Under the pieces are notes generated by a model that worked only from the letters and a program-made list of their open reading frames with translations, was not told the origin of the DNA and made no database searches. The translations under genes were made by a program, and so were the position numbers. Shown here piece after piece: positions 2,301-40,034 of a DNA stretch of 64,000 nt. Origin of the DNA: Phycisphaerales bacterium (GTDB taxonomy: Bacteria; Planctomycetota; Phycisphaerae; UBA1845); contig CP070744.1 in assembly GCA_020348265.1 (NCBI GenBank), positions 4,993,559-5,057,558 on the forward strand. Reading direction: 5' to 3'. Position 1 is the first letter of the stretch. Each line of letters opens with the position of its first letter.

Positions 2301-5300
2301 CTACGGATAGACAAACGCCGTCTCGAACACCACATAACCCACCTGCTCGGTTGTGTGGTTGCGCTCGATGTCGCCGATTTGGTCCTCATCGATCACGACA
2401 TCCAGCGTTGTTGCTGTGGTCGGGTTTGCACCGTAGGTGTAGGACCAACCACCGTTTCCGCCGTCGACACCGGCCAGAGTGGTTACCGCCATCGTCGGTA
2501 CCGAAGCAAACGCTGTGTTGAACGTGTAGGTGAACGGTGGACCGTTGGTGATGCCACGCACGGTATCCGCACCTACCAGAGCCTCGAAGGCAACTCCGCC
2601 TATCGTGCCGTGACCGGCCTCGAAGACGATGAAGCCCACCGTCTCATCGGCCCGTGTCGTGTTCGTGTCCTCGGCTACCTCCTTACCCGTCTTCAATGCG
2701 CTAGCCGACGGCGGATTGGTCCGGAAAGTGCCCTGACACCAGAAGACAGACCAGAGCGGATCGTTCTCACTCATCACCTGGCCGATCACAACAGGGTTGG
2801 TGTAGGTGTTGCCGTACGTCTGGGTCTCACCCACCCAGCTGTTGTTCTCGTCCGTGACGGTCGAGAGATAAGTCTGGGCCTCGATGTCGACACCATCGAT
2901 CGTCCAGGCGCCTTCTTCGACCACCAAACAGCTGACATCCTCGGCCGCGACTGCACCACCTGACGGATTCTGCAGGCGGATGTCAAAGCTCGTGGACGTC
3001 ACGCTGCTGATGCGAGTTACCACTGGCGTGGTGTTGTTGGCGTACTCCGCCGAGCAAACCACAACCGGATTGACGTACGTGTTGGTCAGGTTTACCGTCA
3101 CGTAGCTAGCGCCCACGCTTACCGTGCCACCTTCCATCTGGGCAACAGGTCCGGTGAGACACTCGTCGTTCACTTCATCGCAGCCCTGTCCCGGACAGGG
3201 ATCGCTGCCCGCCTGGCAGAAGCCACCGACGCAAGTCTCCGCTCCGTTGCAGAAGAGCCCGTCGTCGCACTCGGGATTCGTCTCACAGTCATAGCAGCTG
3301 TCGCCGCCCTCGTCGCAGTACTGGCCCGGACACGGATCGCTACCGCCCTGGCAGTCCAGGGTGGCGTTGCAGACCTCCGCACCATCACAGAACGCGCCGT
3401 TATCGCAGTATGCGTCATTGGGCACGTTATCGCACGAGTCGGTGCCTTCGTTGCACGAGTCATCCGTGCATCCGACGCCGTCGTTGCAGTCAACGGTTGT
3501 ACCGGCCTGGCAGCCGAGCACCTCATCGCAGGTCTCGGCGCCGTCGCAGTACGCTCCATTGTCACAGTTGGCATTATCGGGCACATTGTCGCAGGAATCC
3601 GTGCCTTCATTGCAGGAATCGTCCGTGCAGGCAACGCCGTCGCCGCAATCAACGGCGGTTCCATCGACGCAGCTGCCGCTCACGCAGTCTTCGACACCGT
3701 TGCAGTACAGCCCGTCATCACAATCAGCCGGGACGCCGCATTCCGGCCCGGCCGATGCGGTCATGGCAACGTCATCGACGCAGATGTCGCTGGTATAGCT
3801 GGTACCGGTGACACCCCGGAAGCGTATCTTGATCAGCGTGCCGTCATAGGCGCTCAGATCCACGGCGGCCTGGTACCAGGTATCGCCCTGGTTTCCGGAC
3901 AGGCTCCACACTTCCGCCCAGTCAACGCAGTCCTCGGACACCTCCACATACAGAGTGCCCATAGCTGCACCGTACATGTGGTACCAGAAGGTCATCTCCG
4001 CGGCACTGGCTCCGGTGAAGTCGAAGCACGGTCCCTCGATGATGCCGGTCACGTTGGGATAGTTCGGGCTGGACGCTTCGGTGTACACGTAGTACGTACC
4101 GCCGTGAGCCCCGGACGGCCCCGTGCTGCTTGATGAAGTCGAACCGGTGTTTCGCGTCCAGTCCATTGCATCACCGCCGACGTTGACCCAATCTCCCCAT
4201 CCGCTTTCGTATCCTTCCGAATACGGGAAGGAGGAGATTTGGGTGGCGCAATCGTTGTAGCAGACACCGCTGACGCAAGTGTCGACCGTGCAGTCGTTTC
4301 CGTCATCGCACTGCCCGTTTTCGGTGCAGGGTATACAGACATCGCTCGCCTCATCGCAGCCCTGCATCGGGCAGGGATACGTGCCCGGCTGGCAGAATCC
4401 GCCGGCGCAGGTCTCCGCTCCGTTGCAGAAGAGGCCATCGTCGCACTCAGGATCGCCGCCGCAGGTAACCGCCGGCGTGATGGTCAGCGAGAGATCGTCA
4501 ATGGTCATATCACTGGTATAGCTGCTGCCCGTTACACCCCGCCAGCGCATCTTGACCTTCTGGAGCGCATATGCCGACAGATCGACGCTGGCCTGATACC
4601 AGGAGTTACCCTGATTCCCGGATAGACTCCACACCGTATCCCAGGTGACGCAGTCCTCGGATACCTCAAGGTTGAGCGTACCCATGGCGGTTCCGTACAT
4701 GTGGTACCAGAAGGTCAGGTCCGCGTCACTAGCTCCGGTGAAGTCGAAGCACGGGCCTTCGAGGATTGCCGTTTTACTGGGATAGTTGGGGCTGGAAGCC
4801 TCCGTGTAAACGTACCAGGTCCCACCATGAGCGGCCGATGGCCCTGTGCTGCTCGATGGAGTCCCGCCACTGTCGCGGGTCCAATCCATGTCATCGCCGC
4901 CGACATTGCCCCAATCACCCCAGCCACTCTCGAATCCTTCGGTGTAGGGGAACGTTGATACTTCAGTCGAGCAATCGTTGTAGCAGACGCCGTCTATGCA
5001 GTCGTCGACCGTGCAATCACTGCTATCGTCGCAATCTGCGGGTACGGCGCACTCTGCGGCCTCGCACTGGTCTGTAGTCTCGTTGCAGTACTGCGGGGCG
5101 CAGGGATCACCGCTTGATACGCAGTCCGAAACGGGATCACAACTTTCCGTGCCGTTGCAGAACAGCCCGTCGTCCGGGCAGTTGGTGTCGTTGGCTACGT
5201 TGTCACACGAGTCCGTTCCTTCGTTGCAGGAATCGTCCGTGCACCCCACGCCGTCGCTGCAATCGATGGCCGTTCCGGACCGGCAATCGAGCGTGGCATG

Positions 5301-8300
5301 GCAAATCTCTGTACCGTCGCAGTAAAGGCCGTTGTCGCAATTGGCATCGTTGGCGATGTTGTCGCACGAGTCCGTGCCCTCGTTGCAGGAATCGTCCGTG
5401 CACCCCACGGCGTCATTACAGTCGACGGCCGAGCCGGACTGGCAATCCAACGTTGTGTGGCAGGTCTCGGCTCCATCGCAGTACAGGCCGTTATCGCAGT
5501 TGGCGTTGTTGGCGATATTGTCACACGAATCCGTGCCTTCATTGCAGGAATCGTCCGTGCAGCCAACGCCGTCATTGCAGTCTACAGCCGTGCCAGCCTG
5601 GCAGGTCCCGCCCACGCATGTCTCTGCGCCATTGCAATACACGCCGTCATCGCAATCGGGATCGCCTCCACAGTCGTAGCAGAAATCGCCGCCCTCGTCA
5701 CAAAGTTGACCCGGACATGGATCGCTGCCCGCCCGGCAATCCAGCGTGGCGTGACAGGTCTCCGTCCCATCGCAGAACAGGCCATTATCGCAGTTGCCGT
5801 CGTCGGCGATGTTGTCGCAAGAATCCGTGCCTTCGTTGCACGAGTCGTTGGTGCAACCCACGCCATCATTGCAGTCGACGGTGGTTCCGGCTTGGCAGTC
5901 GGAGGTCGCATGGCACCATTCTGCACCATCGCAATACAGACCATTGTCACAGTTGGCATCGTTAGTGAGGTTATCACACGAGTCCGTACCTTCGTTGCAG
6001 GAGTCATCCGTGCAGCCCACACCGTCATTGCAGTCAACAGCCGTGCCGGACTGGCAATCCAACGTGGCATGGCAAGTCTCCGCGCCGTCGCAGTAGAGAC
6101 CATTATCGCAGTTGGCATCGTTGGCGACGTTGTCACACGAGTCCGTGCCTTCATTGCAGGAGTCGTCCGTGCATCCCACGCCGTCGTTGCAGTTGACGCT
6201 CGTTCCCGACTGGCAATCCAACGTAGCATGGCATGTTTCCGCGCCATCGCAGTAGAGGCCGTTATCGCAGTTGGCATCGATGGCGATGTTGTCGCAGGAA
6301 TCGGTGCCCTCGTTGCAGGAGTCATCCGTGCATCCTACGGCGTCGTTGCAGTCGACAGCCGTGCCGCTTTGGCAGTCACCGTACGCATCGCAGGTTTCCA
6401 CGCCGTTGCAGTAGGCCCCATCTGAGCAGGCGGCATCGTTGGTGCACTCGCACGCGGGGCAGGGTCCGCCACAGTCGATGCGATCCTCTCCCTGGTTCTG
6501 AATCCCGTCGCTGCAAGTCGCGGTGCCAGTGTTACGGCCCCAGATCTGCACGTCATCAATATTCCAGCCGCAGAACTGCCAGGAAGTGTCAGTCGTACCC
6601 ATGGTCCATCGGAGGTAGACGGTGGGTTGATTGTCCGCAATCGCGGAGATGTCGAACTCCTGGAGGGTCCAGGCGGTGTCAGCCACCTGGGCGCTGTTCT
6701 GCCATACCGTCGTCCAAGTGCTACCGTTGTTGCTCACCCTGAAATAAGCATGGTCGTAGGTGTTGACCTCGACGCCGAGCCAGCGCTGAAAGGTCACACT
6801 CACTTCCACCAGATCGGTGCAGTCAATTGCGGTCGTGGTCAAATGTGTCTCGGGAAGGCTGTTTTCATAGTCTCCGCTGAGGTTATAGCCGTACACGTTC
6901 GTGCCGGTGTATCCACTGGTCGGATCAGGCCCGCCATACTGTCCGCCACCGCCGGTCGGCTGCCCCCATGCCCAGAGCCCCTCGACCGACCACCCCGGAT
7001 TCGTGTTCATGGTCCATTCATACTGAACCGTTGGGGCCTCGACGCATTGGTCGTTCACTTCGTCACAGGACTGCCCCGGACAAGGATCGCTGCCCGCCTG
7101 ACAGGATTGCGACACGCAAGTCTCCGCACCATTGCAGAAGAGGCCGTCGTCGCAATCGGGATCGCCGGTGCAGGGAGCGAGCAAGTTCAACGTGTTGATC
7201 ACGTCGATGCGACCATACCCGTAGGCGCGGTCGAACCCGGCCGGGCCCATGTCGATGGCCCCGTCGCGGATGATCTGGCGTACCTCAGCGGGTGTAAGCG
7301 TCGGATCCACGTCCAAGACCAAGGCGACGAGACCGGCTACGGTGGGGCAGGACATGCTTGTGCCGCTCATACCCGTGATCGAGGCACCACCAGCAGCCGT
7401 GCTCGCGGACCAGATGTTCGCACCCGGGGCGGTCACGTCGAGATAGTCACTCTCGTTGCTGAAGCAGCCGACATCGTCCGTCTGAGGGGCATAGTCGGTG
7501 CAGATTCCCCAGTTCCAGTTTGTGGTGGGGTCTTCGCAAGTCGGATAGTCGTTCTTCCAGGTCATTCCCACGGCGATGACATCGACACCGCAGGCCGGCG
7601 AACCCATAGCGTTGCTGTAGTTCTCATTGCCGGAGGCGGCCACAGCCACGACGCCGTTAGCTACGGCATTATTCGCCGCGACAGCCCAGCTGTGTGTACA
7701 CGGCCCGCTGTAGTTCCCGGTGCCAATACTCATGCTGATAACGTCAGCCTGTGCACCGGATGCCGACTGGTCTGCGCAGTAGTCAATACCCGCGATGATG
7801 TCGCTGTCATAACCGCCGCCGGCAAAGTTCAGGACCTTGCACCCGATCAGTGTCGCTTCCGGAGCCACACCCTGGAATGGCATCGATCCTGTGCCGCAGG
7901 GGTCCCAGCTTATTCCGGTTCCACCGAGGGCAATGCCGGAACAGTGTGATCCGTGGCCGTTGTCGTCTTCAGGGTTGTTGTCATCGTTATAGAAGTCGTA
8001 CCCTTTCGACGTATCGATTCGATCAGAGTACATCACGTGATCCGAGTCGATCCCGGTGTCGACGACGCAGATGCGCACGCCGGCTCCGTCCGCGGACAAG
8101 CCCGCTCCAGTTATCTGACTCTGCAGGCCGCGAATCAAGGGAATGCTGTCGTGGAGTTTGAGGACGTTGGGATGATATTCATCCTTCTCGACTTTCACTA
8201 CACCTGGCATGTTCCTCAGTGCGTCAACCTGATCTTCCGGAATATCCCGCAGGTTGAGTACGTTGGGCATGGTGTCCCCGTACTCGTAATGCACTTTTCC

Positions 8301-8618
8301 TTTGTTTAGCGCGGCGAAGCTCCGGACATCTGCACGCTCGACCGCGTTGCGCGTGAACATCGGTTCCATGTAAACCAGCACGCTGACCAAGCCCGCTTTG
8401 GCTCGCGGACCGTCCATCGACATGGCATCTGCCGATTCCACAGCGCTAGGAACCGACATATCGGGGAGCGGAGTGTCATAATATGCTTCGTCAACCTGCA
8501 GGTTTATGGTCCCGGTATCGGAGCCTCCTGCTGACCAGTCCACACCGGTACCCAAGGCCAACACGGCGACCATAGCTGGCAGCCAGGTACATCTTTTTTG
8601 TTGAAGCACCCGTCTCAT
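2301..8618 (-). CDS. giant secreted multidomain subtilisin-like serine peptidase (S8) with I9-like propeptide, three MAM-like beta-sandwich domains, nine 53-aa Cys-rich repeat modules and an unassigned C-terminal domain
   Basis: Signal peptide MRRVLQQKRCTWLPAMVAVLALG (preferred start at 8618; the track ORF extends to 8705). Catalytic triad motifs VVDTGID, GHGSHCSG, GTSMSCP. MAM-like segments (FPYTEGFESGWGDW...). Repeated DCNDGVGCTDDSCNEGTDSCDN.ANDANCDNGLYCDGAETCHATLDCQSGTAV modules. Confidence 0.85.
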   Translation of the reverse strand: MRRVLQQKRCTWLPAMVAVLALGTGVDWSAGGSDTGTINLQVDEAYYDTPLPDMSVPSAVESADAMSMDGPRAKAGLVSVLVYMEPMFTRNAVERADVRSFAALNKGKVHYEYGDTMPNVLNLRDIPEDQVDALRNMPGVVKVEKDEYHPNVLKLHDSIPLIRGLQSQITGAGLSADGAGVRICVVDTGIDSDHVMYSDRIDTSKGYDFYNDDNNPEDDNGHGSHCSGIALGGTGISWDPCGTGSMPFQGVAPEATLIGCKVLNFAGGGYDSDIIAGIDYCADQSASGAQADVISMSIGTGNYSGPCTHSWAVAANNAVANGVVAVAASGNENYSNAMGSPACGVDVIAVGMTWKNDYPTCEDPTTNWNWGICTDYAPQTDDVGCFSNESDYLDVTAPGANIWSASTAAGGASITGMSGTSMSCPTVAGLVALVLDVDPTLTPAEVRQIIRDGAIDMGPAGFDRAYGYGRIDVINTLNLLAPCTGDPDCDDGLFCNGAETCVSQSCQAGSDPCPGQSCDEVNDQCVEAPTVQYEWTMNTNPGWSVEGLWAWGQPTGGGGQYGGPDPTSGYTGTNVYGYNLSGDYENSLPETHLTTTAIDCTDLVEVSVTFQRWLGVEVNTYDHAYFRVSNNGSTWTTVWQNSAQVADTAWTLQEFDISAIADNQPTVYLRWTMGTTDTSWQFCGWNIDDVQIWGRNTGTATCSDGIQNQGEDRIDCGGPCPACECTNDAACSDGAYCNGVETCDAYGDCQSGTAVDCNDAVGCTDDSCNEGTDSCDNIAIDANCDNGLYCDGAETCHATLDCQSGTSVNCNDGVGCTDDSCNEGTDSCDNVANDANCDNGLYCDGAETCHATLDCQSGTAVDCNDGVGCTDDSCNEGTDSCDNLTNDANCDNGLYCDGAEWCHATSDCQAGTTVDCNDGVGCTNDSCNEGTDSCDNIADDGNCDNGLFCDGTETCHATLDCRAGSDPCPGQLCDEGGDFCYDCGGDPDCDDGVYCNGAETCVGGTCQAGTAVDCNDGVGCTDDSCNEGTDSCDNIANNANCDNGLYCDGAETCHTTLDCQSGSAVDCNDAVGCTDDSCNEGTDSCDNIANDANCDNGLYCDGTEICHATLDCRSGTAIDCSDGVGCTDDSCNEGTDSCDNVANDTNCPDDGLFCNGTESCDPVSDCVSSGDPCAPQYCNETTDQCEAAECAVPADCDDSSDCTVDDCIDGVCYNDCSTEVSTFPYTEGFESGWGDWGNVGGDDMDWTRDSGGTPSSSTGPSAAHGGTWYVYTEASSPNYPSKTAILEGPCFDFTGASDADLTFWYHMYGTAMGTLNLEVSEDCVTWDTVWSLSGNQGNSWYQASVDLSAYALQKVKMRWRGVTGSSYTSDMTIDDLSLTITPAVTCGGDPECDDGLFCNGAETCAGGFCQPGTYPCPMQGCDEASDVCIPCTENGQCDDGNDCTVDTCVSGVCYNDCATQISSFPYSEGYESGWGDWVNVGGDAMDWTRNTGSTSSSSTGPSGAHGGTYYVYTEASSPNYPNVTGIIEGPCFDFTGASAAEMTFWYHMYGAAMGTLYVEVSEDCVDWAEVWSLSGNQGDTWYQAAVDLSAYDGTLIKIRFRGVTGTSYTSDICVDDVAMTASAGPECGVPADCDDGLYCNGVEDCVSGSCVDGTAVDCGDGVACTDDSCNEGTDSCDNVPDNANCDNGAYCDGAETCDEVLGCQAGTTVDCNDGVGCTDDSCNEGTDSCDNVPNDAYCDNGAFCDGAEVCNATLDCQGGSDPCPGQYCDEGGDSCYDCETNPECDDGLFCNGAETCVGGFCQAGSDPCPGQGCDEVNDECLTGPVAQMEGGTVSVGASYVTVNLTNTYVNPVVVCSAEYANNTTPVVTRISSVTSTSFDIRLQNPSGGAVAAEDVSCLVVEEGAWTIDGVDIEAQTYLSTVTDENNSWVGETQTYGNTYTNPVVIGQVMSENDPLWSVFWCQGTFRTNPPSASALKTGKEVAEDTNTTRADETVGFIVFEAGHGTIGGVAFEALVGADTVRGITNGPPFTYTFNTAFASVPTMAVTTLAGVDGGNGGWSYTYGANPTTATTLDVVIDEDQIGDIERNHTTEQVGYVVFETAFVYP
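3380..3700. repeat. tandem coding repeat block 2: two further copies of the same ~159-bp Cys-rich module unit
   Basis: The same DNA motif recurs at about 3430 and 3590; the protein shows DCGDGVACTDDSCNEGTDSCDN... and DCNDGVGCTDDSCNEGTDSCDN... Confidence 0.6.
5140..6430. repeat. tandem coding repeat block 1: about seven copies of a ~159-bp unit (one copy carries a 135-bp insert) inside the giant peptidase gene
   Basis: Near-identical DNA strings recur at ~155-160 bp spacing, e.g. gtcacacga(g/a)tccgtgccttc(g/a)ttgcagga(g/a)tcgtccgtgca at about 5205, 5365, 5520, 5815, 5980, 6135 and 6290. Coordinates are approximate. Confidence 0.7.
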
Positions 8619-8883
8619 GATCTGTTCACTCCAAAAATGTAGACCTATAGCCGTGGCCGAGCCGAGCATTGGCCGATATGAAAACCTGGCCCAGCCACCC
8701 TCCATTCAACCTTGCGTTCTCGATAGAAGAAGCATGACGCACGCAGTACAGACCGCCCCCGTACTTTGGCGTTGAAACACACCAACCGCGCTTGCCGATG
8801 CACAGCCATAGCTGGTGCGCGAATGAAGTGCCGGCAACAACGCAGCCCACACAGCGCATCCCGAGGGAGCGGTATAGTCCGCT

Positions 8884-12632: not shown

Positions 12633-13107
12633 CTCTTACGGCCAGCGACAGGATGGCCTCGATGATCTTCTGATAGCCCGTACAACGGCAGAGATTGCCC
12701 TCCAGGCCGCGTTTGACTTCGTCCTCCGTTGGAGCGGGGTTTGACTCCAGCAACGCATAGGCAGCCATGATCATGCCCGGCGTGCAAAAGCCGCATTGTA
12801 CCGCACCGTAATCCACGAACGCCTTCTGGATCGGGTGGAGCTGTCCGTTGCTTTCCAACCCTTCGATGGTCAGGACTTTTGATCCTTCACATTCGACAGC
12901 CAACACCAGGCATGAGTTGACCACCCTACCATCGAGCAGCACGGAACACGCCCCACATTCGCCCTCGCCACAGCCGTACTTAGTGCCGGTGAGCTCGAGC
13001 CCGTTGCGGAGGACGTCCAGCAAGGTGGCCGTCGAGGGAGCCATAATGGTGACGGACTCGCCGTTGACGACCATGCCAATCTGGATTCGATCAAGAACTT
13101 GCGGCAC
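12616..13107 (-). CDS. [2Fe-2S]-binding small subunit of the molybdenum hydroxylase (CoxS-like)
   Basis: GCGEGECGACSV..., CGFCTPGMIM and NLCRCTGYQKI cysteine motifs; 163 aa. Confidence 0.9.
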   Translation of the reverse strand: MPQVLDRIQIGMVVNGESVTIMAPSTATLLDVLRNGLELTGTKYGCGEGECGACSVLLDGRVVNSCLVLAVECEGSKVLTIEGLESNGQLHPIQKAFVDYGAVQCGFCTPGMIMAAYALLESNPAPTEDEVKRGLEGNLCRCTGYQKIIEAILSLAVRGADDV

Positions 13108-13951
13108 GCTGCAATATCCTCCTCAACATCGCCGCTACGACATCGCGGCGGTACGCTTGAGAAGCTCGCACATCCGTGATTGGCTTGATCTCCTCACGAG
13201 CGGCGTTCTCACATCTGTTGATGACTTCCGGTGAGAGCGCCATGCCAAGCAACTCTGCTTCCGCGGCTTTTCCACGCAAGGGAACAGGTGCGACGGAGCC
13301 GTATCCCACGCGAGCCCGCGAAATCACGCCGCCCCCCAACTCAACCGCCACGCCAACAGATGCGACGGCAATCTCCATCGCAGGGCGCGTGCCGAACTTG
13401 TCCCAAGCGGAGAACGCGCCTTGAGGCACCGGTTTGAAGCGCAGATGAGTCACGATTTCTCCCGGTGCGACAACCGTGGCGCCGGGGCCTTTGAAGAACT
13501 CTTCAATGGGTACGGTACGGATGGTCGCACCGCTATCAGTATGCGTGGCAACCTCCACTTCCGCGTCGAGCAGTAGGAGGGGGATCGCGCTGTCTGCCGC
13601 CGGTGAGGCGTTACACAGGTTTCCGCCAATGCTAGCCCGATTCCGAATCTGCGGGCAGGCGACGCGCCCCACAGCCTCTGCCAAGATCGGTGCGGCGGCC
13701 CGGATCAGAGGGTCCGCCTCAATCTCGCTCATCGACGTACACGCCCCGATGCGGATATCGCCATTTGCGCGCGATACGCCCTTGAGGTCTTCGATGTGCT
13801 TCAAATCAACGATGGACGCGGGTCGGTCCTGCACACCCGCCGACCAACGTGGAAGCAGGTCCGTCCCACCCGCGAGGGGCGAAACGGGCCAGGCAGATCG
13901 CCCGATCAGCGACAGTGCCTCCTCGATTGTTTTGGGGCGATGATAGATCAA
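13091..13951 (-). CDS. FAD-binding medium subunit of the molybdenum hydroxylase (CoxM-like)
   Basis: MIYHRPKTIEEALSLI N-terminus, AGGTDLLP motif, 286 aa. Gene order M-S-L with 4-nt overlaps. Confidence 0.85.
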   Translation of the reverse strand: MIYHRPKTIEEALSLIGRSAWPVSPLAGGTDLLPRWSAGVQDRPASIVDLKHIEDLKGVSRANGDIRIGACTSMSEIEADPLIRAAAPILAEAVGRVACPQIRNRASIGGNLCNASPAADSAIPLLLLDAEVEVATHTDSGATIRTVPIEEFFKGPGATVVAPGEIVTHLRFKPVPQGAFSAWDKFGTRPAMEIAVASVGVAVELGGGVISRARVGYGSVAPVPLRGKAAEAELLGMALSPEVINRCENAAREEIKPITDVRASQAYRRDVVAAMLRRILQRAASS

Positions 13952-14340
13952 CCCGGAGCCAATCTATGCGGCCCGCTTGTCGAACATCTCGACTTCAGGG
14001 CCGTTCAAACCTCATGCGACCGTACCCACGCAGCCAAGCCGACTTTAATAATGCAGACCCGAACACGCCGCAAGCTCCGCATCTCCGCAACCTGACCAGA
14101 CTCGTTCTGTGACTTCCCTTGCGAGTCAATCTGCACTTAACCTTGAGCATTCGTGGTCAAGCAGTCTGATGTTGATTGGAAGGGATGGGAGGCAGCAGCC
14201 GGATACTCCGCAGGGTGTTTCAAAGGTCGACTTGCTGACGTACGATACCGCGTGCCGTGGATCATCACGAATGCTGACCCTGAGGGGTTCTCCGGGAAGA
14301 TGATTCGGCATTTTTCGTGCTCTGTAGCTTGTTGAGGAAC

Positions 14341-14405
14341 GTAGCGCCACCCCTTGTGGGTGGCGCCGTGCGGCGGTTCTCGCCGCCCACAGGGGGTGGC
14401 GCTAC
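14341..14405. repeat. palindromic repeat element, copy A (inverted arms GTAGCGCCACCCCTTGTGGGTGGCGCC / GCCGCCCACAGGGGGTGGCGCTAC)
   Basis: Left arm 14341-14367, right arm 14382-14405, spacer ~14 nt. Each arm is itself internally palindromic. The element ends 20 nt before the iorA start codon. Confidence 0.6.
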
Positions 14406-14425
14406 ACTTGGGTCGCCGGAACGGG

Positions 14426-22486: not shown

Positions 22487-24093
22487 AATGGGAAGAGAGG
22501 TCTGAAGTTAGACCCGTGTTCAACGAGTCCGGGCTTGAAATCAAGCCGGTCTATTCGCCCGAGGATGTTGAGGAATCCGGGGGATGGAATAGCATCGGCT
22601 CTCCAGGGGAATTCCCCTTCACACGCGGAATTCATAAAGAAATGTATCGGAAACGCCCCTGGACCATGCGCCAGTATGCGGGTTTCGGCAAACCGGAGGA
22701 AACTAACGAGCGTTTTCGCTATCTCATAGCCAATGGGCAGACGGGTCTGAATGTGGCTTTCGATCTACCGACCCAGAGTGGGTTGGATTCGGATGACCCT
22801 GCCGCCCAGGGTGAGGTGGGCCGAGTGGGCATGGCTGTTGATACGCTCAAGGATTTCGAGATTGCATTCGACGGCATCGATCTCGATAAGATAACCGTGT
22901 CTCTGACGATTAACGGGGCCGCGGTTACTCTGATTGCCATGTACTTCGCCATGGCCAAGAAGCGCGGGTATGACATAAGCAAGCTGCGCGGGACCGCCCA
23001 GAACGATATTCTCAAGGAATTCGTTGGCCGGGGAACATGGGTCTTCCCGGTGGAACCTTCAATCAAACTTGTCGGTGACACCATCCTCTACTGTGCGGAG
23101 AATGCTCCTCTGTACAGCCCGGTCAGCGTTTGTGGTTACCATATTCGCGAATCAGGGGCCAATCCGATCCAAGAGATGGCTTATGCATTCTGCATTGCCA
23201 AAGCATACATTGACCACGTGCTTGAAAGAGGAATGGAGATTGACGAGTTTGCCTCGCGCCTCTCATTCAACTTCGACATTCATGGGAATATATTCGAACA
23301 GGTGGCCAAGTTTCGCGCAGGCAGGCGACTGTGGGCCAAGATCCTCAAGACGGACTATGGAACGCAGAATCCCAAGTCGATGTGGTTACGAATGATTGCG
23401 GGCGGCGGCGGCGGCGGCCTGACTATCGAGCAGCCCGAGAATAACATAATCCGAACGGCTTATTATGCGCTGGTCAGTGCTTTGTCGGGCACACAGACGA
23501 TGGCGCTGTGCTGCTACGACGAAGCATACACCATTCCCTCGGAGAAGGCCGCCCGTGTAGCGCTAAGAACAATGCAGATTCTCGTCGAAGAGATGGGATT
23601 GTGTGACACCGTGGATCCCCTGGCTGGATCATACTACATCGAGACGTTGACCAACCAAATGGAGGAGAAGATCCGCGCTCTTATGAAGGAGGTTGATGCA
23701 CAAGGAGGTATCGTAAAGGCCATCGCTGAGGGACATATACAGAACACCGTCTCCAAGCAGGCATTCGAGAACCTGCGGAAACTTCAAAGCGGTGAAACGC
23801 GCAAGGTGGGTGTCAACTGCTATCGAATCGAGGAAGAGCAGCAGGCTGTCGAGTTTCATCGATTCAAGGAGGAGGATTGCGCGGAGCAGATTGCCCGATT
23901 GAATAAGGCACGATCCGAACGGGATAGCGCGAGAGTGGGCAACGCATTGGCGACCGTATTGGATGAAGCCAAAGCGGGGCGCAACGTAATGCCTGCGATT
24001 ATCAATGCAGTGGAGGCTTATGCGACGGTCGGCGAGATCACTCAGTGCCTGGTGGATGTATACGGCCGGTATGAAGAGCCGGTACGTTTCTGA
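22483..24093 (+). CDS. methylmalonyl-CoA-mutase-family catalytic (substrate-binding TIM-barrel) subunit
   Basis: FPFTRGIHKEMYRKRPWTMRQYAGFG...NERFRYLIANGQTGLNVAFDLPTQ; 536 aa. ATGA overlap with the B12-subunit gene. Confidence 0.85.
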   Translation: MKWEERSEVRPVFNESGLEIKPVYSPEDVEESGGWNSIGSPGEFPFTRGIHKEMYRKRPWTMRQYAGFGKPEETNERFRYLIANGQTGLNVAFDLPTQSGLDSDDPAAQGEVGRVGMAVDTLKDFEIAFDGIDLDKITVSLTINGAAVTLIAMYFAMAKKRGYDISKLRGTAQNDILKEFVGRGTWVFPVEPSIKLVGDTILYCAENAPLYSPVSVCGYHIRESGANPIQEMAYAFCIAKAYIDHVLERGMEIDEFASRLSFNFDIHGNIFEQVAKFRAGRRLWAKILKTDYGTQNPKSMWLRMIAGGGGGGLTIEQPENNIIRTAYYALVSALSGTQTMALCCYDEAYTIPSEKAARVALRTMQILVEEMGLCDTVDPLAGSYYIETLTNQMEEKIRALMKEVDAQGGIVKAIAEGHIQNTVSKQAFENLRKLQSGETRKVGVNCYRIEEEQQAVEFHRFKEEDCAEQIARLNKARSERDSARVGNALATVLDEAKAGRNVMPAIINAVEAYATVGEITQCLVDVYGRYEEPVRF

Positions 24094-24169
24094 TCGGCTG
24101 CCTCTCATCTGCGAAGAAGACGCCGTGCCATTTAGCAGCTTGTTGAACAAGTTGCTTGTTGTGATCCAA

Positions 24170-24237
24170 GTGTAGCGCCACCCCTTGTGGGTGGCGTCTT
24201 TCGAGGCTTCACGTCGTCCACGAGGGGCGGCGCTACA
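24170..24237. repeat. palindromic repeat element, copy B
   Basis: GTGTAGCGCCACCCCTTGTGGGTGGCG (24170-24196)...GTCCACGAGGGGCGGCGCTACA (~24216-24237). It lies between the mutase stop and the M32 peptidase start, inside the 5' leader of the latter. Confidence 0.55.
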
Positions 24238-24294
24238 TTATTCAACAGGCTGTCAGACCACGACGGCACACTCAACAAGGACAAGGATAAGGGA

Positions 24295-33537: not shown

Positions 33538-35058
33538 ATGTTCAGATTATATGTATGTGCGATTGTCCTGTTTGGCGTTGCCACGAGCGCCGCGCAGGCA
33601 CAGACAGTATTCTATGTCGATGCCGATGCCACCAGCCCGTCGTACGACGGAGCAAGTTGGTGCACGGCTTTCAAGTACCTCCAGGATGCCCTGGCTGTGG
33701 CGACCGCCTCTGACGAGATTCGGATGGCGGACGGGGTCTACCTGGCGGATAAGTCGACGTGCGTCATAGATGACGATTGCGGCGACGCTTCGGACACCTG
33801 TGTGGCAGGACTCTGTCAGTGGCAGTCTCCGAGAGAGCAGAGTTTCGATCTCATCGACGGCGTAGCCATCCGCGGAGGGTATGCCGGATGCGGCGCGCCG
33901 GATCCCGATGAGCGCGATTTGAAACTACATGAGACAATCCTCAGCGGCGACCTTAACGGTGACGACCATTTGAGGGGTGACAACAGCGAGAATACCTATC
34001 GCATAATCAACGCCCAGGATCTTGGCGATACCACGGTTCTAGACGGGCTGACCGTCACCGGCGCAAACGCGAATGGGTTCCTGCCGGCTAACCTCGGGGG
34101 GGGAATGCTCAATGACGCCTCCAGTCCGGTCATAACCAACTGCGCGTTCATCGACAATACCGCGGTTTTTGCCGGTGGGGCGCTTTACAACAGGAAAGGA
34201 AGCAATCCTGAGATTACCGGATGCCGTTTCCTCAATAACTTGGCGCCTTTCGGCGCTGCCATACGCAACTATGCCAGCGCTCCGGTTGTGACCGACTGCA
34301 CTTTCACGGGGAATTCCGCGGAGAATCGCGGTGCGGGAGTATACAACACGGATTCCTCCGACACCCACCTGATCAACTGTTTCTTTAGCGAGAACGAGGC
34401 CTTCGATGGGGCAGCCGTATACAACGAGTTAAGCAGTTTGACGTTGAGCAACTGTACGATAACCGACAACCATGCAGCCTTTGTCGGCGGTGTGCTCAGC
34501 TACAACGCCTCCCCGACGATAGAGAACTGTATTCTCTGGGGCAATAGCGACAAGACGGGCACCGGTGAGGCGGCTCAGGTCAAAGTCGACGTCGGTACGC
34601 TTACAATCGGCCACTCTTGCGTTCAGGGGTGGACCGGAACTCTCGGCGGCGCGGGCAACCACGGAGACGATCCACTTTTCGTTCCCGGCCCGCTGGGGTG
34701 CTATTACCTGAGTCAGACAGTCGCGGGCCAGCTTGATGATAGCCCGTGCGTGGACGCCGGAAGTGACGATGCCGCAACGTTGGGGTTTGATACCGTTACA
34801 ACACGGGGCGATGAAGCCGTCGACACGGGCACCGTGGATATGGGCTATCATTACGCTGTTACCGGTGATCCGTTGAATCTCGGCGACTTCGACAGCAGCG
34901 GCACCGTCAACCTGTTCGACTTTGCCCAGCTCCAGCTATGCTTCACCGGGGAGGATGCACCCAATGATAATCCCTGTGTCCGCAAGTTCGACTTCGACTG
35001 CGATGCCGATGTCGACCTTGAGGACTACGCTGCCTTTCAAGCCTATTTCCAGGATTAG
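33538..35058 (+). CDS. secreted right-handed parallel beta-helix (PbH1) repeat protein with C-terminal dockerin-like Ca-loop module
   Basis: Signal peptide; repeated ...N.AxxGGA.YN... beta-helix rungs. C-terminus GDFDSSGTVNLFDFAQLQLCFTG...FDFDCDADVDLEDYAAFQAYF. Confidence 0.75.
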   Translation: MFRLYVCAIVLFGVATSAAQAQTVFYVDADATSPSYDGASWCTAFKYLQDALAVATASDEIRMADGVYLADKSTCVIDDDCGDASDTCVAGLCQWQSPREQSFDLIDGVAIRGGYAGCGAPDPDERDLKLHETILSGDLNGDDHLRGDNSENTYRIINAQDLGDTTVLDGLTVTGANANGFLPANLGGGMLNDASSPVITNCAFIDNTAVFAGGALYNRKGSNPEITGCRFLNNLAPFGAAIRNYASAPVVTDCTFTGNSAENRGAGVYNTDSSDTHLINCFFSENEAFDGAAVYNELSSLTLSNCTITDNHAAFVGGVLSYNASPTIENCILWGNSDKTGTGEAAQVKVDVGTLTIGHSCVQGWTGTLGGAGNHGDDPLFVPGPLGCYYLSQTVAGQLDDSPCVDAGSDDAATLGFDTVTTRGDEAVDTGTVDMGYHYAVTGDPLNLGDFDSSGTVNLFDFAQLQLCFTGEDAPNDNPCVRKFDFDCDADVDLEDYAAFQAYFQD

Positions 35059-35178
35059 AGCGTCTTCGTCTGTTGTGTAGCGGGTCAGGAGTTGGGTGCC
35101 ATACCCAAGCGAAGCGCCGGCATGCAGTAGGCCAGCTACAAAACATCCGAACCTGCCATAGGGTATTCTCGTCTGTCG

Positions 35179-35245
35179 TGTAGTGTCACTCTTTGTGGGT
35201 GACGAGGGAATCGCAAGGACGCCGCCCACAAGGGACGGCGCTACA
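35179..35245. repeat. palindromic repeat element, copy C (diverged)
   Basis: TGTAGTGTCACTCTTTGTGGGTGACG (35179-35204)...GCCGCCCACAAGGGACGGCGCTACA (35221-35245). It lies between the convergent beta-helix and flotillin genes. Confidence 0.5.
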
Positions 35246-35434
35246 ATCGCTACACGGAATCCGAGTCTGCTCCAGTACTATGTCTCGCGACTCCAGCGGC
35301 TGTCGATGAGAGATCAGCCGCAGGCCTTAACCTACGCGGATGTCCGTGTGGGCTCAAGCCTGCGGCTAACGTCGTCGTAGAACTTGTGAAACACGGTGCT
35401 CGTCACATGGTACATTCGTCCGTGATTCTTCGTA

Positions 35435-36793
35435 CTACGCTGATGACACGGCCGTGTCGGTCTGCCGAGTGCCAGGATCATGACCGTTGGCTTTTGTGAT
35501 GTTGCCCGCAATGGTTTTCGTAAGGTCGCGGAAATCGACGCCGAGGATCGTCTCCAAGGTGGCGAGCGAATCGCTGAGCGTTCGTGCCCGGCTCATGGCG
35601 GCCCCGCTGATGGCTTTTCCGTCGCCGCTGTCAATGACCGTCACTTCGCCGAGTGAGATGTTGTTGACGCTCTTGGCGACTTGTTCGACCACGCTGGGCA
35701 TAAGCTCAACGAGCATGACCTTCAGTGCGTCGGGGTGCTTCTGGATTGCCTGGCCGATGCATTCGACGGCGGCCGCACGGGCCTTGCCCTCCTCCATCAC
35801 AGAAGCGGCATCACCCTCGGCCTTGGCCCGGGCTACGTCGCGCTCGGCAAGAGCGGCCTGAACCTCCGTTGCCTGCAGGCGAGCCTCCTCGGCCTTGGCA
35901 GCAGCTTCTTGTTGTTCGGCCTCCTTGAAGGCGGCTTCGCGGGCTAACTCCGCCTTGCGGATGCGCAGGGCGTTCTCGGCTTCAGCGATGGATTTTTCCG
36001 CAACCAAGCGGGCTTCCTCCGCTTTGCGATGAGAGACGGCCTCGGCTGTCTTCGCCTCAGCGTCACGTTCTGCCTGAGCCTTCCGTGCGGAGGCAGAAGC
36101 CTCGGCCTCTTTGATGGATGCTTCCGCTGCCCGTTCCGCCTCTGATTTGCGGGCAGCCGCCAAGACCTCCGCGGTCGCTTTCCGGGCGATCGACTCCAAG
36201 TATTCCTGCTCATCGTGGACGTTCTGGATGTTGACGCTATCTATGATCAGGCCCAGCTTGCGGAAGTCGTCAGTGACCTCCTGCATGACCGTCTGAACGA
36301 ACTTGTCGCGATCTTCGACGATGTCTTCGGGGATCATCTTGCCGATGACCGCGCGCAGGCCGCCTTCGAGCGTTTCACGCGCCACCCGTTGGAGTTCCTG
36401 CGCGGGTTGGTCCAGGAAACGTTCAATCGCGTTGGCACGCTCGGTGGGGTCGGACGACACCTTCACGTTAGCCACACCGGTTACGATGACCGGCATCATC
36501 GTGCCCCCACCCGCCTGGGCCTTGACCTCCAAGGCCACCTGCATATTCCGCAGGCTAAGCCGGGATACTTTCTCAATGATGGGAATCACCAGAGTTCGCC
36601 CGCCGATCAGCGTGCGGTATCCCTGTCCGTCGCGCTGCCTCTTACCGCTGATGATCAGCATCTCGCTGGGGTTTCCCACGATCATCAGATTGGCGATGAT
36701 CACGATCAGTGCAACCACGGCAAACAGTGCGGCGATACCGATTATGATCCCGACCGAAGCCTGCGAACTTGCTGCGAGAATAGCTGTGTTCAC
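35435..36793 (-). CDS. flotillin / SPFH (band 7) domain protein
   Basis: N-terminal TM helix, an SPFH domain, and a long Ala/Glu-rich coiled coil (EAEAKTAEAVSHRKAEEARLVAEK...). Confidence 0.85.
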   Translation of the reverse strand: MNTAILAASSQASVGIIIGIAALFAVVALIVIIANLMIVGNPSEMLIISGKRQRDGQGYRTLIGGRTLVIPIIEKVSRLSLRNMQVALEVKAQAGGGTMMPVIVTGVANVKVSSDPTERANAIERFLDQPAQELQRVARETLEGGLRAVIGKMIPEDIVEDRDKFVQTVMQEVTDDFRKLGLIIDSVNIQNVHDEQEYLESIARKATAEVLAAARKSEAERAAEASIKEAEASASARKAQAERDAEAKTAEAVSHRKAEEARLVAEKSIAEAENALRIRKAELAREAAFKEAEQQEAAAKAEEARLQATEVQAALAERDVARAKAEGDAASVMEEGKARAAAVECIGQAIQKHPDALKVMLVELMPSVVEQVAKSVNNISLGEVTVIDSGDGKAISGAAMSRARTLSDSLATLETILGVDFRDLTKTIAGNITKANGHDPGTRQTDTAVSSA

Positions 36794-37489: not shown

Positions 37490-37910
37490 GACTTAACCTC
37501 CGGACTGCCGCTGGGTGGTCACCGATGACCACCTCGAGGCAATCGCACCACCTTGAATATAAGACGCGGGATTACCGGCGCCTATTTGAATTCCAGGCTC
37601 TTTTCATAATCGACCAAAACCGCCCTGCAAAGAGGCAGTCGAAAAACCGGATGTAATAACCCGTCCGGTGATTATCTGAGGCCTCGGAACGGCGTTTTTA
37701 ACCGTCTGGGCGACCTGCCACCACCCCGACCGGCAGTTGGCTGGGTGGGTTCGTCTGACGATCCATTGTCAGGATGTCGGGAATGACCGTGCAACGGCTT
37801 AGGCCGCGACTCATTCCATCCAGCCGCGTTGATTCGCCAGGGGTATCCAGGTACGGTAAACGTGAGATCAAGTGCGACAGACAAGGTCCAGTAACGCAAA
37901 GGCACGCTCA

Positions 37911-40034
37911 ATGGCCAACGATCCCGCCCAGCCAACTGCAGCACGGCTTGCCGGTTCGATCTGGGCGCCGGTTTTGTTGTTGGTAGTCATAACCGCAGTG
38001 GCCTACCTGCCGGTCGTGTCCTGCGGGTTCATCTGGGATGACGATTCCTATGTCCAGGAGAACCAGACTCTGCGCTCGGTCAGCGGGTTGAGCCGGATTT
38101 GGTTTGAACTCGGCGCTACCCTTCAGTACTACCCCCTGGTCCACACGACCTATTGGCTTGAGTACAGGCTTTGGGGATTGAACCCTACCGGCTATCACGT
38201 GGTCAACATACTCTTGCACGCGCTCGGCGCTGTGCTGCTTTGGCGGGTGTCGAGATTCCTTAGTGTACCAGCCGCGTGGGTGGTAGCTGCCGTCTTTGCT
38301 TTGCATCCCGTGCACGTAGAATCGGTTGCATGGATCACCGAACGCAAGAACGTTCTGTCGGGCGTTTTCTACTTCGGTGCGGCGTTGGCCTTCCTGCGCT
38401 TCGCACTCTCGCCACAGGAGACAGCAGTGCCAAAGGGGAAGAGGCGCTGGCTCTATGTGGCGGCATTGGTGTTGTTCCTCTGCGCGCTGCTCAGCAAAAC
38501 GGTGACCTGCACGCTTCCGGCGGCGTTGCTGGTGGTTCTCTGGTGGCATCGCAAGGGCATCCGTTGGGCGGACGCGCTTCAGTTGGCGCCCTTTTTCATT
38601 CTGGGAATAGCCCTGGGTCTGTTGACCGTCTGGATGGAGAGGCACGAGGTCGGTGCCATCGGAGAAGAGTGGAGCTTATCGCCTGTCGAACGCTGCCTGA
38701 TTGCCGGACGGGCCCTGTTCTTCTACACAGGCAAGCTTGTCTGGCCACACCCGTTGATATTCGTCTATCCGCGATGGGGAATCGATGCGACAATCTGGTG
38801 GCAGCACGTCTATCCGGTCATGGCCGTCATCGTTGTGATTGTGCTCTGGCTGTGTCGACGCCGCATCGGTCGCGGTCCATTGGCGGCCGTGTTGCTTTTC
38901 GGCGGGACTCTGGTGCCAGCTCTAGGCTTCTTCGACATATATCCCATGCGCTATTCCTTCGTTGCCGATCACTTCCAGTACCTGGCAGGCGTCGGTGTCA
39001 TAGCACTAGTGGTAGTCGCCGGCTATCGCGCCCTGGATGGACTCGGGACTTGGGGAACGCGCTTAGCACCTGCGGTGGCGATTGTTGCGTTGGTGACACT
39101 CGGTGCATTGACCTGGCGTCAGGGACGCGTCTATCTGGATGCGGAAACGCTCTGGCGTGATACGCTCAGCAAGAACCCCGACGTGTGGCTTGCGCACAAC
39201 AACCTCGGCAACATACTCGAAAGACAGGGCAAGCTCGACGAGGCGATAGACCATCATCAACAGGCCCTTCAGGTCGAGCCGCGATTCGCGCTAAACGTCG
39301 CCCACTCTCATTACAACTTGGGCAACGCGTTGGCCGCACAACGCAAGTTCACCGAGGCGACAAAGCACTATCGTGAGACACTTCGGAACAAACCCGATTA
39401 TGTCGACGCCCGCGTCAATCTGGGAAACATGCTGCTAAAGCAGGGCAATCTGGATGAGGCGGTCAGGCAATATCGCCAGGCGGTTAAGGACACGCCCAAG
39501 TCATCCAATGCTCACTACAACTTGGGCACTGCCTTGTTCAGGCAAGGTAAACTGGAAGAGGCTTCGGCACATTTTCGCCAGGCGGTCGAGATCAACCCCG
39601 GCCTGGCAAGGGCGCATTACATGCTCGGATTGGCCCAGGCGGGATTGGGGCTGTTTTCCGAGGCGCTTCAGCAGTTTCGTGAGGCGGCGCGCATTAAACC
39701 TGATTGGCCGGCACCTTTGGCCAAGGCTGCGTGGATTATGGCCGTAAACCCGGACGCATCCATCCACGACGAGACGGAGGCAATCCGAATGGCCGAGCGT
39801 GCTGCCGATATGACCGGGCGTCGCAACGGCCCGATTCTTGACACTCTGGCGGCTGCCTACGCTGCAGCAGGTCGGTTCGATCAGGCCGTCGCGACAGAGC
39901 AAGCCGCAATCGACTTGGCATCTCAACGCCGCGACGACCGTCTGCTGGAGCACATGCGCCTGCGACTTGATCTCTACAAGCAGGAGAGGCCCTATCAAGA
40001 AATCGAGCCGCCCGGAAGCGGAGTGCGTCCTTAG
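37911..40034 (+). CDS. TMTC/PMT-like polytopic membrane protein (DUF1736-type) with C-terminal TPR array, second paralog
   Basis: GFIWDDDSYVQENQTLRSV, YYPLVHTTYWLEYRLWGLNPTGYHVVNILLHALGAV and LHPVHVESVAWITERKNVLSG (DUF1736 hallmarks). The C-terminal TPRs include AHNNLGNILERQGKLDEAIDHHQQALQVEP. Confidence 0.8.
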   Translation: MANDPAQPTAARLAGSIWAPVLLLVVITAVAYLPVVSCGFIWDDDSYVQENQTLRSVSGLSRIWFELGATLQYYPLVHTTYWLEYRLWGLNPTGYHVVNILLHALGAVLLWRVSRFLSVPAAWVVAAVFALHPVHVESVAWITERKNVLSGVFYFGAALAFLRFALSPQETAVPKGKRRWLYVAALVLFLCALLSKTVTCTLPAALLVVLWWHRKGIRWADALQLAPFFILGIALGLLTVWMERHEVGAIGEEWSLSPVERCLIAGRALFFYTGKLVWPHPLIFVYPRWGIDATIWWQHVYPVMAVIVVIVLWLCRRRIGRGPLAAVLLFGGTLVPALGFFDIYPMRYSFVADHFQYLAGVGVIALVVVAGYRALDGLGTWGTRLAPAVAIVALVTLGALTWRQGRVYLDAETLWRDTLSKNPDVWLAHNNLGNILERQGKLDEAIDHHQQALQVEPRFALNVAHSHYNLGNALAAQRKFTEATKHYRETLRNKPDYVDARVNLGNMLLKQGNLDEAVRQYRQAVKDTPKSSNAHYNLGTALFRQGKLEEASAHFRQAVEINPGLARAHYMLGLAQAGLGLFSEALQQFREAARIKPDWPAPLAKAAWIMAVNPDASIHDETEAIRMAERAADMTGRRNGPILDTLAAAYAAAGRFDQAVATEQAAIDLASQRRDDRLLEHMRLRLDLYKQERPYQEIEPPGSGVRP

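Follow-up and report, generated by a model that had tools for sequence, protein, structure and literature searches.

Three intergenic sites in the 64-kb stretch of DNA analysed here (the window) are most probably copies of one dispersed, non-coding family of GTAG-tagged REPs, arranged as head-to-head dimers in a REPIN- or BIME-like manner. The elements are 66 nt long and lie at 14341-14406 (copy A), 24172-24237 (copy B) and 35180-35245 (copy C), and each consists of two inverted 25-nt arms with a 15-nt spacer between them. Every arm is built from an unpaired 5' GTAG tag, an 8-bp GC-rich stem (CGCCACCC / GGGTGGCG) and the 5-nt loop CTTGT; the right arm is the reverse complement of the left one and ends in CTAC(A), which places the tags outermost (head-to-head). 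The preliminary description of these sites had claimed two arms of about 25 nt that are mutual reverse complements and are each internally palindromic, and this is how the sequence reads at all three. Its coordinates hold to within 2 nt, and the leading GT of its consensus is present in copies B and C but not in copy A, which has AC there.

Anatomy of the three copies

The left REP of copy A, GTAGCGCCACCCCTTGTGGGTGGCG (14341-14365, plus strand), is the exact family consensus, with GTAG, CGCCACCC, CTTGT and GGGTGGCG following each other. The 15-nt spacer CCGTGCGGCGGTTCT (14366-14380), of which the family conserves the length and not the sequence, leads to the right REP CGCCGCCCACAGGGGGTGGCGCTAC (14381-14405, minus strand), which reads GTAG... 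on the minus strand with two mismatches to the consensus; the two arms of this copy are 92% complementary. In copy B the left REP (24172-24196, plus strand) is identical to the consensus, and the right REP (24212-24236, minus strand) has a different stem type, CGTCGTCC...GGGCGGCG, which makes this copy a heterodimer. The left REP of copy C, GTAGTGTCACTCTTTGTGGGTGACG (35180-35204, plus strand), carries a compensatory C-G to T-A stem change relative to copies A and B, and its right REP is GTAGCGCCGTCCCTTGTGGGCGGCG in minus-strand reading (35220-35244, minus strand).

A repeat search of the window placed the three copies, all in the same orientation, in one 66-nt family, with the other two 82% and 67% identical to copy A, and it also listed the arm pairs as inverted repeats. 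The arm occurs four times in the window with up to three mismatches, against 0.00 occurrences expected from 100 dinucleotide shuffles, and all six arms are recovered when up to six mismatches are allowed. A covariance model built from 37 dimers scores 72-79 bits at the three sites and 10 bits at the next-best match in the window; since the three copies were in its training set, these scores show only the absence of further window copies. Neither this model nor a GTAG-hairpin scan nor a loop-centred scan found a fourth copy in the window. An unrelated 29-nt inverted repeat (37726-37754 / 37918-37946, 83% complementary, 163 nt apart) straddles the gene start at 37872.

Distribution across genomes

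A scan of species-representative genomes (596 Gb) with the arm pattern GTAGCGCCNNCCCNNGTGGNNGNCG, which has 18 specified bases, matched at least 112 genome stretches (hereafter loci, numbered with the prefix L). Among the matches listed, about 20 Planctomycetota/Phycisphaerae MAGs account for at least about 82 stretches, and 13 of these MAGs have several loci (at least 15 each in JAZGDL01 and CAZYEX01, at least 10 in JAZDHF01 and at least 9 in CBDUZO01), and at least seven further loci belong to one MAG labelled Hydrogenedentes. Other phyla are represented among the matches listed by single hits, mostly inside genes and in about the number that chance would give for 18 bases in 596 Gb. Copy numbers per genome are lower bounds, and the window alone has three copies per 64 kb. 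The preliminary description had named a lack of further copies and of conserved pairing as the outcome that would speak against it; we find many further copies, with the pairing potential kept.

The GTAG-hairpin anatomy is found in all six window arms and in more than 150 arms of the loci. Altogether the window and the 112 loci contain 117 elements, 48 of them head-to-head dimers and 69 singlets. The dimer spacers measure 11-17 nt in 38 of the 48 (13-17 nt in 37 of these, mostly 13-15 nt) and are not conserved in sequence across subfamilies. Across the family, hardly any variation affects the head GTAGCG and the loop CTTGT, while the stems vary by compensatory change (CCAC/GTGG, TCAC/GTGA, CCGC/GCGG, TCGC/GCGA). 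Some arms have the inner stem swapped wholesale (GGGG/CCCC, CCGCC/GGCGG), with the GTAGCGCC head and the CTTGT loop kept. An identical 25-mer is present in at least 14 assemblies.

Several other repeat arrangements were seen along the way. A variant arm, GTAGCGCCCGCCCTTGTGGCGGGCG, has the family head and loop on a different stem and occurs in six loci of the Hydrogenedentes-labelled MAG (L007, L019, L050, L059, L081 and L112) and also in L075, from a MAG labelled Nitrospirales; its multiple copies in a bin of another phylum reflect either mis-binning or a wider superfamily sharing head and loop. Dimer units form tandem arrays at L084:3159-3400 (three units at an 88-nt period, in two of which the right arm is truncated) and L087:6476-6626 (84-nt period, two units), resembling the REP clusters described for other GTAG families. 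Single REPs (L015, L029, L040, L047, L088, L104, L107) are often followed by a module GATCAGAGCCGCGAGCG..AAGC..CGCGG that holds further short hairpins, and L015 and L040, which come from different MAGs, share more than 100 nt past the REP. Unrelated GTAG-tagged head-to-head dimers, for example GTAGGACGGACCTCCGGTCCGTC, were found on metagenomic contigs (L114:6777-7139, L137:5157-5214, L191:696-767), and dimers of this layout are evidently common among environmental bacteria.

For several arms the end of the contig is less than about 150 nt away, and five contigs (L001, L035, L042, L060, L082) end at or just before repeats. The Logan contig SRR14739665_822031 (L196) stops 67 nt after the stop codon of the gene upstream of copy C, and two proteins of the window have identical counterparts on short Logan contigs of the same run, SRR14739665. 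Evidently, the repeat family fragments MAG assemblies. Viral contigs gave two matches, both by chance and inside other sequence, and the plasmid collection contained nothing like the 125-nt unit described below. No Rfam family matched over the window at the gathering threshold or at a permissive one, the best sub-threshold match being a eukaryotic miRNA hairpin model with 27.6 bits against a gathering score of 88.

Composite units around the dimers

In two subfamilies the dimer sits inside a longer palindrome. Copy B is part of a 125-nt unit (24132-24256, plus strand) consisting of a left outer TIR TTAGCAGCTTGTTGAACAA (24132-24150, plus strand; family consensus CTAGCAGCCTGTTGAAGAA), a 21-nt linker, the REP dimer and a right outer TIR TTATTCAACAGGCTGTCAG (24238-24256, plus strand). 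Its subfamily is characterised by a unit of about 125 nt with 19-bp outer inverted repeats, CTAGCAGCCTGTTGAAGAA...TTCTTCAACGGGCTGCTAG; 15 units from other genomes align with copy B (alignment A1), and blastn matches cover 24131-24252. The composite unit of copy C (35159-35275, plus strand) comprises a decayed outer inverted repeat, the REP dimer and a module CTACACGGAATCCGAG...CTCCAG. Outer repeats of about 27 nt ending in CGTGTAG / CTACACG define this second subfamily, which was aligned with L031, L092 and L084 (alignment A3), and blastn matches cover 35168-35275. To the left of copy A we note, on a weak basis, a possible decayed outer-repeat module, CTGTAGCTTGTTGAGGAAC (14322-14340, plus strand), which by eye agrees with the left TIR of copy B at 13 of 17 positions and has no partner to the right of copy A.

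Within one genome the 126-nt composite units are 83-94% identical and their flanks 16-57%, and because identity collapses right outside them, the composite units are discrete dispersed units. A REPIN is a doublet that replicates as a unit with unrelated flanks, and the within-genome units have this property. At L058:~590-660, outer repeats of the 19-bp copy B type (GGCAGCCCGTTGAGAAAG...CTTTTCAACAGGCTGCTA) enclose another palindrome and no GTAG REP, and with such a different cargo the outer repeats would be an independent module or a preferred target.

What then is the unit that moves? One could suppose that it is a MITE of about 120-125 nt, moved by a DDE transposase through its outer TIRs (CTAGCAGCCTGTTGAAGAA...TTCTTCAACGGGCTGCTAG in copy B, TTAGAGCA..CTCGG..TTTCGTGTAG in copy C), with the REP dimer as cargo or a later insertion. 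These TIRs are kept in 16 units from at least six assemblies and in the copy C subfamily, the unit boundaries coincide with the TIR ends (beyond which the sequence is random), the ends TA(G/A)CAGCC...GGCTG(C/T)TA would allow a TA duplication, and L058 has the same TIRs around a different hairpin cargo. However, TIRs of the 15-30 bp typical of MITEs are found in copy B (19 bp) and the copy C subfamily (about 27 bp) but not in copy A, on its right side, nor in most other REP dimers or any of the singlets, and the copies of SCS3bin.42 (JAZGDL01) carry other flanks. The common denominator across genomes is instead the GTAG hairpin, which covaries. A target-site duplication is not separable from the palindromic ends (TA...TA), no autonomous or parent IS with these TIRs was seen, and REP dimers nested in longer palindromes are, in the published text on GTAG REPs, already known for RAYT-type repeats (PMC3733652). 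We therefore regard mobility of the whole unit as a MITE as unlikely and the GTAG-tagged REP dimer as the more probable defining element.

Gene context of the copies

All three window copies are intergenic according to the GC3-based gene map and Pfam. Copy A occupies a 495-nt divergent spacer between a CO-dehydrogenase-type flavoprotein gene (13091-13951, minus strand) and an iorA-like gene. The latter probably starts at GTG 14447, with GAGGAGG in front of it, and the end of the copy is 41 nt upstream of this GTG. Copy B follows a methylmalonyl-CoA-mutase-family gene (stop at 24093) and precedes an M32 carboxypeptidase gene, 57 nt upstream of the start of the latter (ATG 24295). Copy C separates a beta-helix protein gene (stop at 35058) from a convergent SPFH/Band-7 gene (stop at 35435). 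The placement of copy C between convergent genes is thus as originally described, and so is that of copy A 5' of iorA, although its divergent spacer with the minus-strand flavoprotein gene had been overlooked. The longest ORFs start inside the elements, at TTG 14354 for iorA (copy A) and GTG 24187 for the M32 peptidase (copy B). Pfam favours the downstream starts, with Peptidase_M32 aligning from residue 8 counted from ATG 24295 and POR_N from residue 29 counted from GTG 14447, in agreement with the earlier claim that over-extended ORF calls had swallowed both copies. Elsewhere in the window, a 2134-aa Cys-rich ORF (2301-8705, minus strand) is composed of tandem 159-nt (53-aa) modules of repeat families D1-D4, and similar repeats are present in L049, from a Phycisphaerae MAG.

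In the window and the 112 loci, 103 of the 117 elements (about 88%) are intergenic or at gene edges, although about 81% of the sequence is coding, which matches the extragenic distribution given in the published text on REPs (PMC3733652). The contexts, assigned in the loci with a crude GC3-based gene caller, are tandem for 48 elements, convergent for 25 and divergent for 12. The window resembles Phycisphaerae DNA, and the only clear ortholog of one of its genes among the loci is in L103, from a Phycisphaerae MAG (73% nucleotide and 72.6% amino-acid identity). Of the REP-bearing loci, none shares synteny with the window sites, with the exception of L103, whose contig breaks off at the expected position.

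The copies might alternatively be host-selected RNA or DNA signals, such as terminators, stabilisers of mRNA 3' ends or protein-binding sites, kept for their function. The hairpins are indeed very stable, they are depleted in divergent promoter regions (12 of 85), and the identical 25-mer in at least 14 assemblies compares with only 72.6% identity in the one orthologous protein compared. In 10 of 12 tandem-context dimers from other genomes the sense-strand RNA is the more stable one, a trend that is suggestive but, the gene calls being crude, does not count as evidence here. Against this, the copies also lie upstream of start codons and in divergent regions, their positions are non-syntenic between genomes, and tandem arrays and mosaic clusters (L084, L087) typify amplifying repeats. 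The preliminary description had proposed copy C as a bidirectional terminator, a role that our results do not support: the hairpin has no T-run behind it on either of the strands, and a terminator scan gave no terminator-like signal at any of the three copies, whose tails are CACTTGGG, TTATTCAA and ATCGCTAC. An intrinsic (Rho-independent) terminator consists of a GC-rich hairpin followed directly by a T/U run, a combination lacking at all three. We consider an origin as host signals quite improbable; it is compatible with the REP explanation and does not exclude it.

A related thought is that the hairpin might go beyond a selfish repeat and be a site that a conserved protein recognises and that hosts throughout the class have domesticated. 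Its basis is the exact 25-mer common to at least 14 species-level Phycisphaerae/Planctomycetota assemblies (the one orthologous protein compared being only about 73% identical), with an invariant GTAGCGCC head and CTTGT loop, on stems that change only by compensatory substitutions, and the partner could be a long-lived RAYT or another factor binding ssDNA or RNA. If this is true, the site may serve to mark the 3' ends of transcripts or to organise the chromosome; terminators are poorly defined in this phylum. This, too, seems to us rather a long shot.

The single hairpin as the conserved unit

The plus-strand RNA of copies A, B and C folds with -61.2, -48.9 and -31.3 kcal/mol and z-scores of -8.3, -8.2 and -2.5, which means that copies A and B are far more stable than their shuffles (z of about -8) and copy C modestly so. 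For copies A and B and for the plus strand of copy C, the minimum-free-energy fold is one long hairpin; on the plus strand of copy A it reaches -56.1 kcal/mol, against -33.6 kcal/mol for a three-way fold with two hairpins. We also observed that at 14339-14407, 24170-24238 and 35178-35246 the plus-strand RNA folds better than the minus-strand RNA by 6-9 kcal/mol, because G-T mismatches there become G-U pairs.

Which of the two folds is conserved can be read from covariation in an alignment of 37 dimers (A2). With two short hairpins and an outer GTAG/CTAC stem, 96.8% of cells are paired, stem pairing within the arms reaches 97-98% with compensatory changes, and 49 cells are doubly changed against 18.7 expected, a number reached by none of 500 shuffles. 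The changes are most easily seen at pairs 9-25 (CG 19 / UA 15), 11-23 (AU 24 / GC 11), 47-63 (CG 30 / UA 6) and 49-61 (GC 19 / AU 16). These counts overstate the number of independent events, since copies within a genome share descent. For the single long hairpin, 91.5% of cells are paired with only three doubly changed cells, all 500 shuffles do at least as well, and 12-19 of the 37 sequences are unpaired at the variable positions. Moreover, 30 of the 37 dimers are heterodimers, and the TA, CG and TG stem types are never self-paired. Covariation within and not between the arms, together with the prevalence of heterodimers, points to the short hairpin as the selected unit. It appears from the alignment that the single REP hairpin, and not the long doublet hairpin, is what selection or amplification history has preserved.

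It had been proposed that the elements work by alternative folds, as an attenuator- or riboswitch-like switch between one long and two short hairpins, and both folds are physically possible; with variable stems that covary only within arms, heterodimers that weaken the long hairpin, a gene context that is not conserved and no Rfam family at threshold, this idea appears largely refuted on the alignment evidence, and we give it hardly any credence. Integron attC sites (no GTTRRRY core, no cassette arrays), CRISPR repeats (the copies are not arrayed) and chance palindromes (none expected) were rejected.

Relation to known repeat families

The REP/BIME likeness noted in the preliminary description was correct and can now be made more precise, namely as head-to-head dimers of GTAG-tagged REPs. 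Di Nocera, De Gregorio & Rocco (2013; PMC3733652) described a GTAG REP superfamily that includes the SMAGs of S. maltophilia and families of R. baltica, and their text covers dimers of the HH type, heterodimers, REPs nested in longer palindromes and an occurrence in Planctomycetes (R. baltica), with stems of 5-13 bp and loops of 2-20 nt. As in the elements of that text, the family analysed here has an unpaired tag at one end of the stem-loop (with an 8-bp stem and a 5-nt loop), tags on the outside of the dimers, heterodimers, tandem and convergent locations, occasional nesting and a host in the PVC superphylum. The consensus GTAGCGCCACCCCTTGTGGGTGGCG and the Phycisphaerae host set it apart from the GTAG REPs as described in the text of that paper, and it is possible that the GTAGCGCCACCCCTTGTGGGTGGCG family is one of the R. 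baltica families among the 24 consensus sequences published there (PMC3733652). The centring of the dimer in a longer palindrome (copies B and C) is also like the GTAG-15 dimers of Anabaena variabilis and the CGTC-1 dimers of H. neapolitanus, which have other outer sequences; outer repeats around another cargo, as in L058, are not reported in the text descriptions of these two families (PMC3733652). The literature searched made no mention of REPs in Phycisphaerae, and a search with the consensus string returned irrelevant matches only.

In P. fluorescens SBW25, REPINs likewise consist of two inverted REPs with a short spacer, able to form one hairpin, and they are dispersed, extragenic, within-genome populations of similar copies (Bertels & Rainey, 2011; PMC3116915). 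Their definition includes a single-copy RAYT with the same REPs on its flanks (PMC3116915); such a gene was not found here in the sampled DNA, and unlike in SBW25, the pairing between arms is not the conserved feature. The sequence comparisons support REP membership on structural grounds; strict REPIN membership would need linkage to a RAYT. With the BIMEs of E. coli (REP types Y, Z1 and Z2) the family shares inverted pairs of different REP subtypes, in a Y/Z-like alternation, and the GTAG tag, the feature recognised by E. coli TnpA_REP (PDB 4ER8). Unlike in the BIMEs, the spacers of 13-15 nt show no recognisable IHF-type motifs, there is no sequence similarity, and the nearby Y1 protein discussed below is of the TIRYT type. 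Every structural feature of the family has a precedent in the GTAG REP literature, and it is not a new kind of element.

Search for the mobilising enzyme

We searched for a RAYT by tblastn with the E. coli TnpA_REP sequence, which was checked against the 4ER8 alignment, and by scanning the window and the 112 loci for the HUH...YxxxNP motif. Neither the window nor 885 kb of sequence around REPs yielded a RAYT flanked by REPs of the family. A single Y1 transposase is encoded in this DNA, at L095:772..<1(-), 2 kb from a dimer. It matches Pfam Y1_Tnp (4e-18) and NCBIfam REP_Tyr_transpos (81.2 bits against a cutoff of 80), and 4ER8 only at E=0.002. The region L095:1-900 (minus strand) encodes a Y1/HUH transposase with a C-terminal extension and is preceded by five tandem CATCAAAGGGGTCA motifs, with AAAGGGGTCA repeats upstream of the transposase. 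The best 80 relatives of the transposase from metagenomes have AAAGGGG[AT][CG]AG...CCCCTTT palindromes, and not GTAGCGCC REPs, on either side. The text of two papers gives GGGG[AT][CG]A[CG] as the signature of TIRYT / subclass 2.1 (PMC3733652, PMC6006769); the flanks of its relatives thus place the L095 protein in this group, and with its own, different repeats we rejected it as the cognate enzyme. The AAAGGGG[AT][CG]AG palindromes make up a further system of hairpin repeats in these organisms, unrelated to the REP family. A 21-aa N-terminal fragment beside the L076 element (E=0.07) is too weak to count as a trace of a RAYT, and none of the ORFs between paired arms in L001, L028, L037, L053, L071, L079 and L102 is transposase-like.

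Possible mechanism

In E. coli, RAYT (TnpA_REP) transposases of the HUH/Y1 type recognise the GTAG tag and the hairpin, and elsewhere in bacteria such hairpins stabilise upstream mRNA or modulate the expression of flanking genes. Work by Nunvar in 2010, by Messing in 2012 (PDB 4ER8) and by Bertels & Rainey in 2011 is said to be the basis for RAYT recognition of the tagged hairpin. How could the present family have spread then? Its basic unit is the 25-nt DNA hairpin with GTAG tag, 8-bp stem and CTTGT loop, two of which, head to head with GTAG outside and 13-15 nt apart, make up the REPIN, BIME or 'HH dimer' arrangement seen in the window and in most relatives. Within a genome, such units may spread in the form of single-stranded hairpins. 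A RAYT, the REP-associated tyrosine transposase of the HUH/Y1 type, would read the GTAG tag together with the hairpin and do the cutting and rejoining in trans, and copies would persist in intergenic DNA. By our analysis, the chances that a RAYT did mobilise the family are roughly even. Copies that are transcribed would add a very stable RNA hairpin to the message; copy B, between co-oriented genes, and copy A, upstream of iorA, are probably transcribed, and the copies may have an effect at the RNA level.

Implications

The repeat is of the well-known REP/REPIN/BIME kind, and the family itself, which is common to many Phycisphaerae genomes, appears to be previously undescribed. In practical terms, the repeats lead to ORF calls that are over-extended (iorA and the M32 peptidase in the window) and break short-read assemblies of Phycisphaerae MAGs, and recognising GTAGCGCCACCCCTTGTGGGTGGCG head-to-head dimers 13-15 nt apart allows such ORF calls and assembly breaks to be corrected. 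The family also provides a clean example in which covariation marks the single hairpin, and not the doublet hairpin, as the conserved unit. With it, the known range of the GTAG REP/REPIN system comes to include a class of the Planctomycetota that has been little studied and, if a cognate RAYT is found, this clade would be well suited for testing the proposed long-term vertical persistence of REPIN-RAYT pairs.
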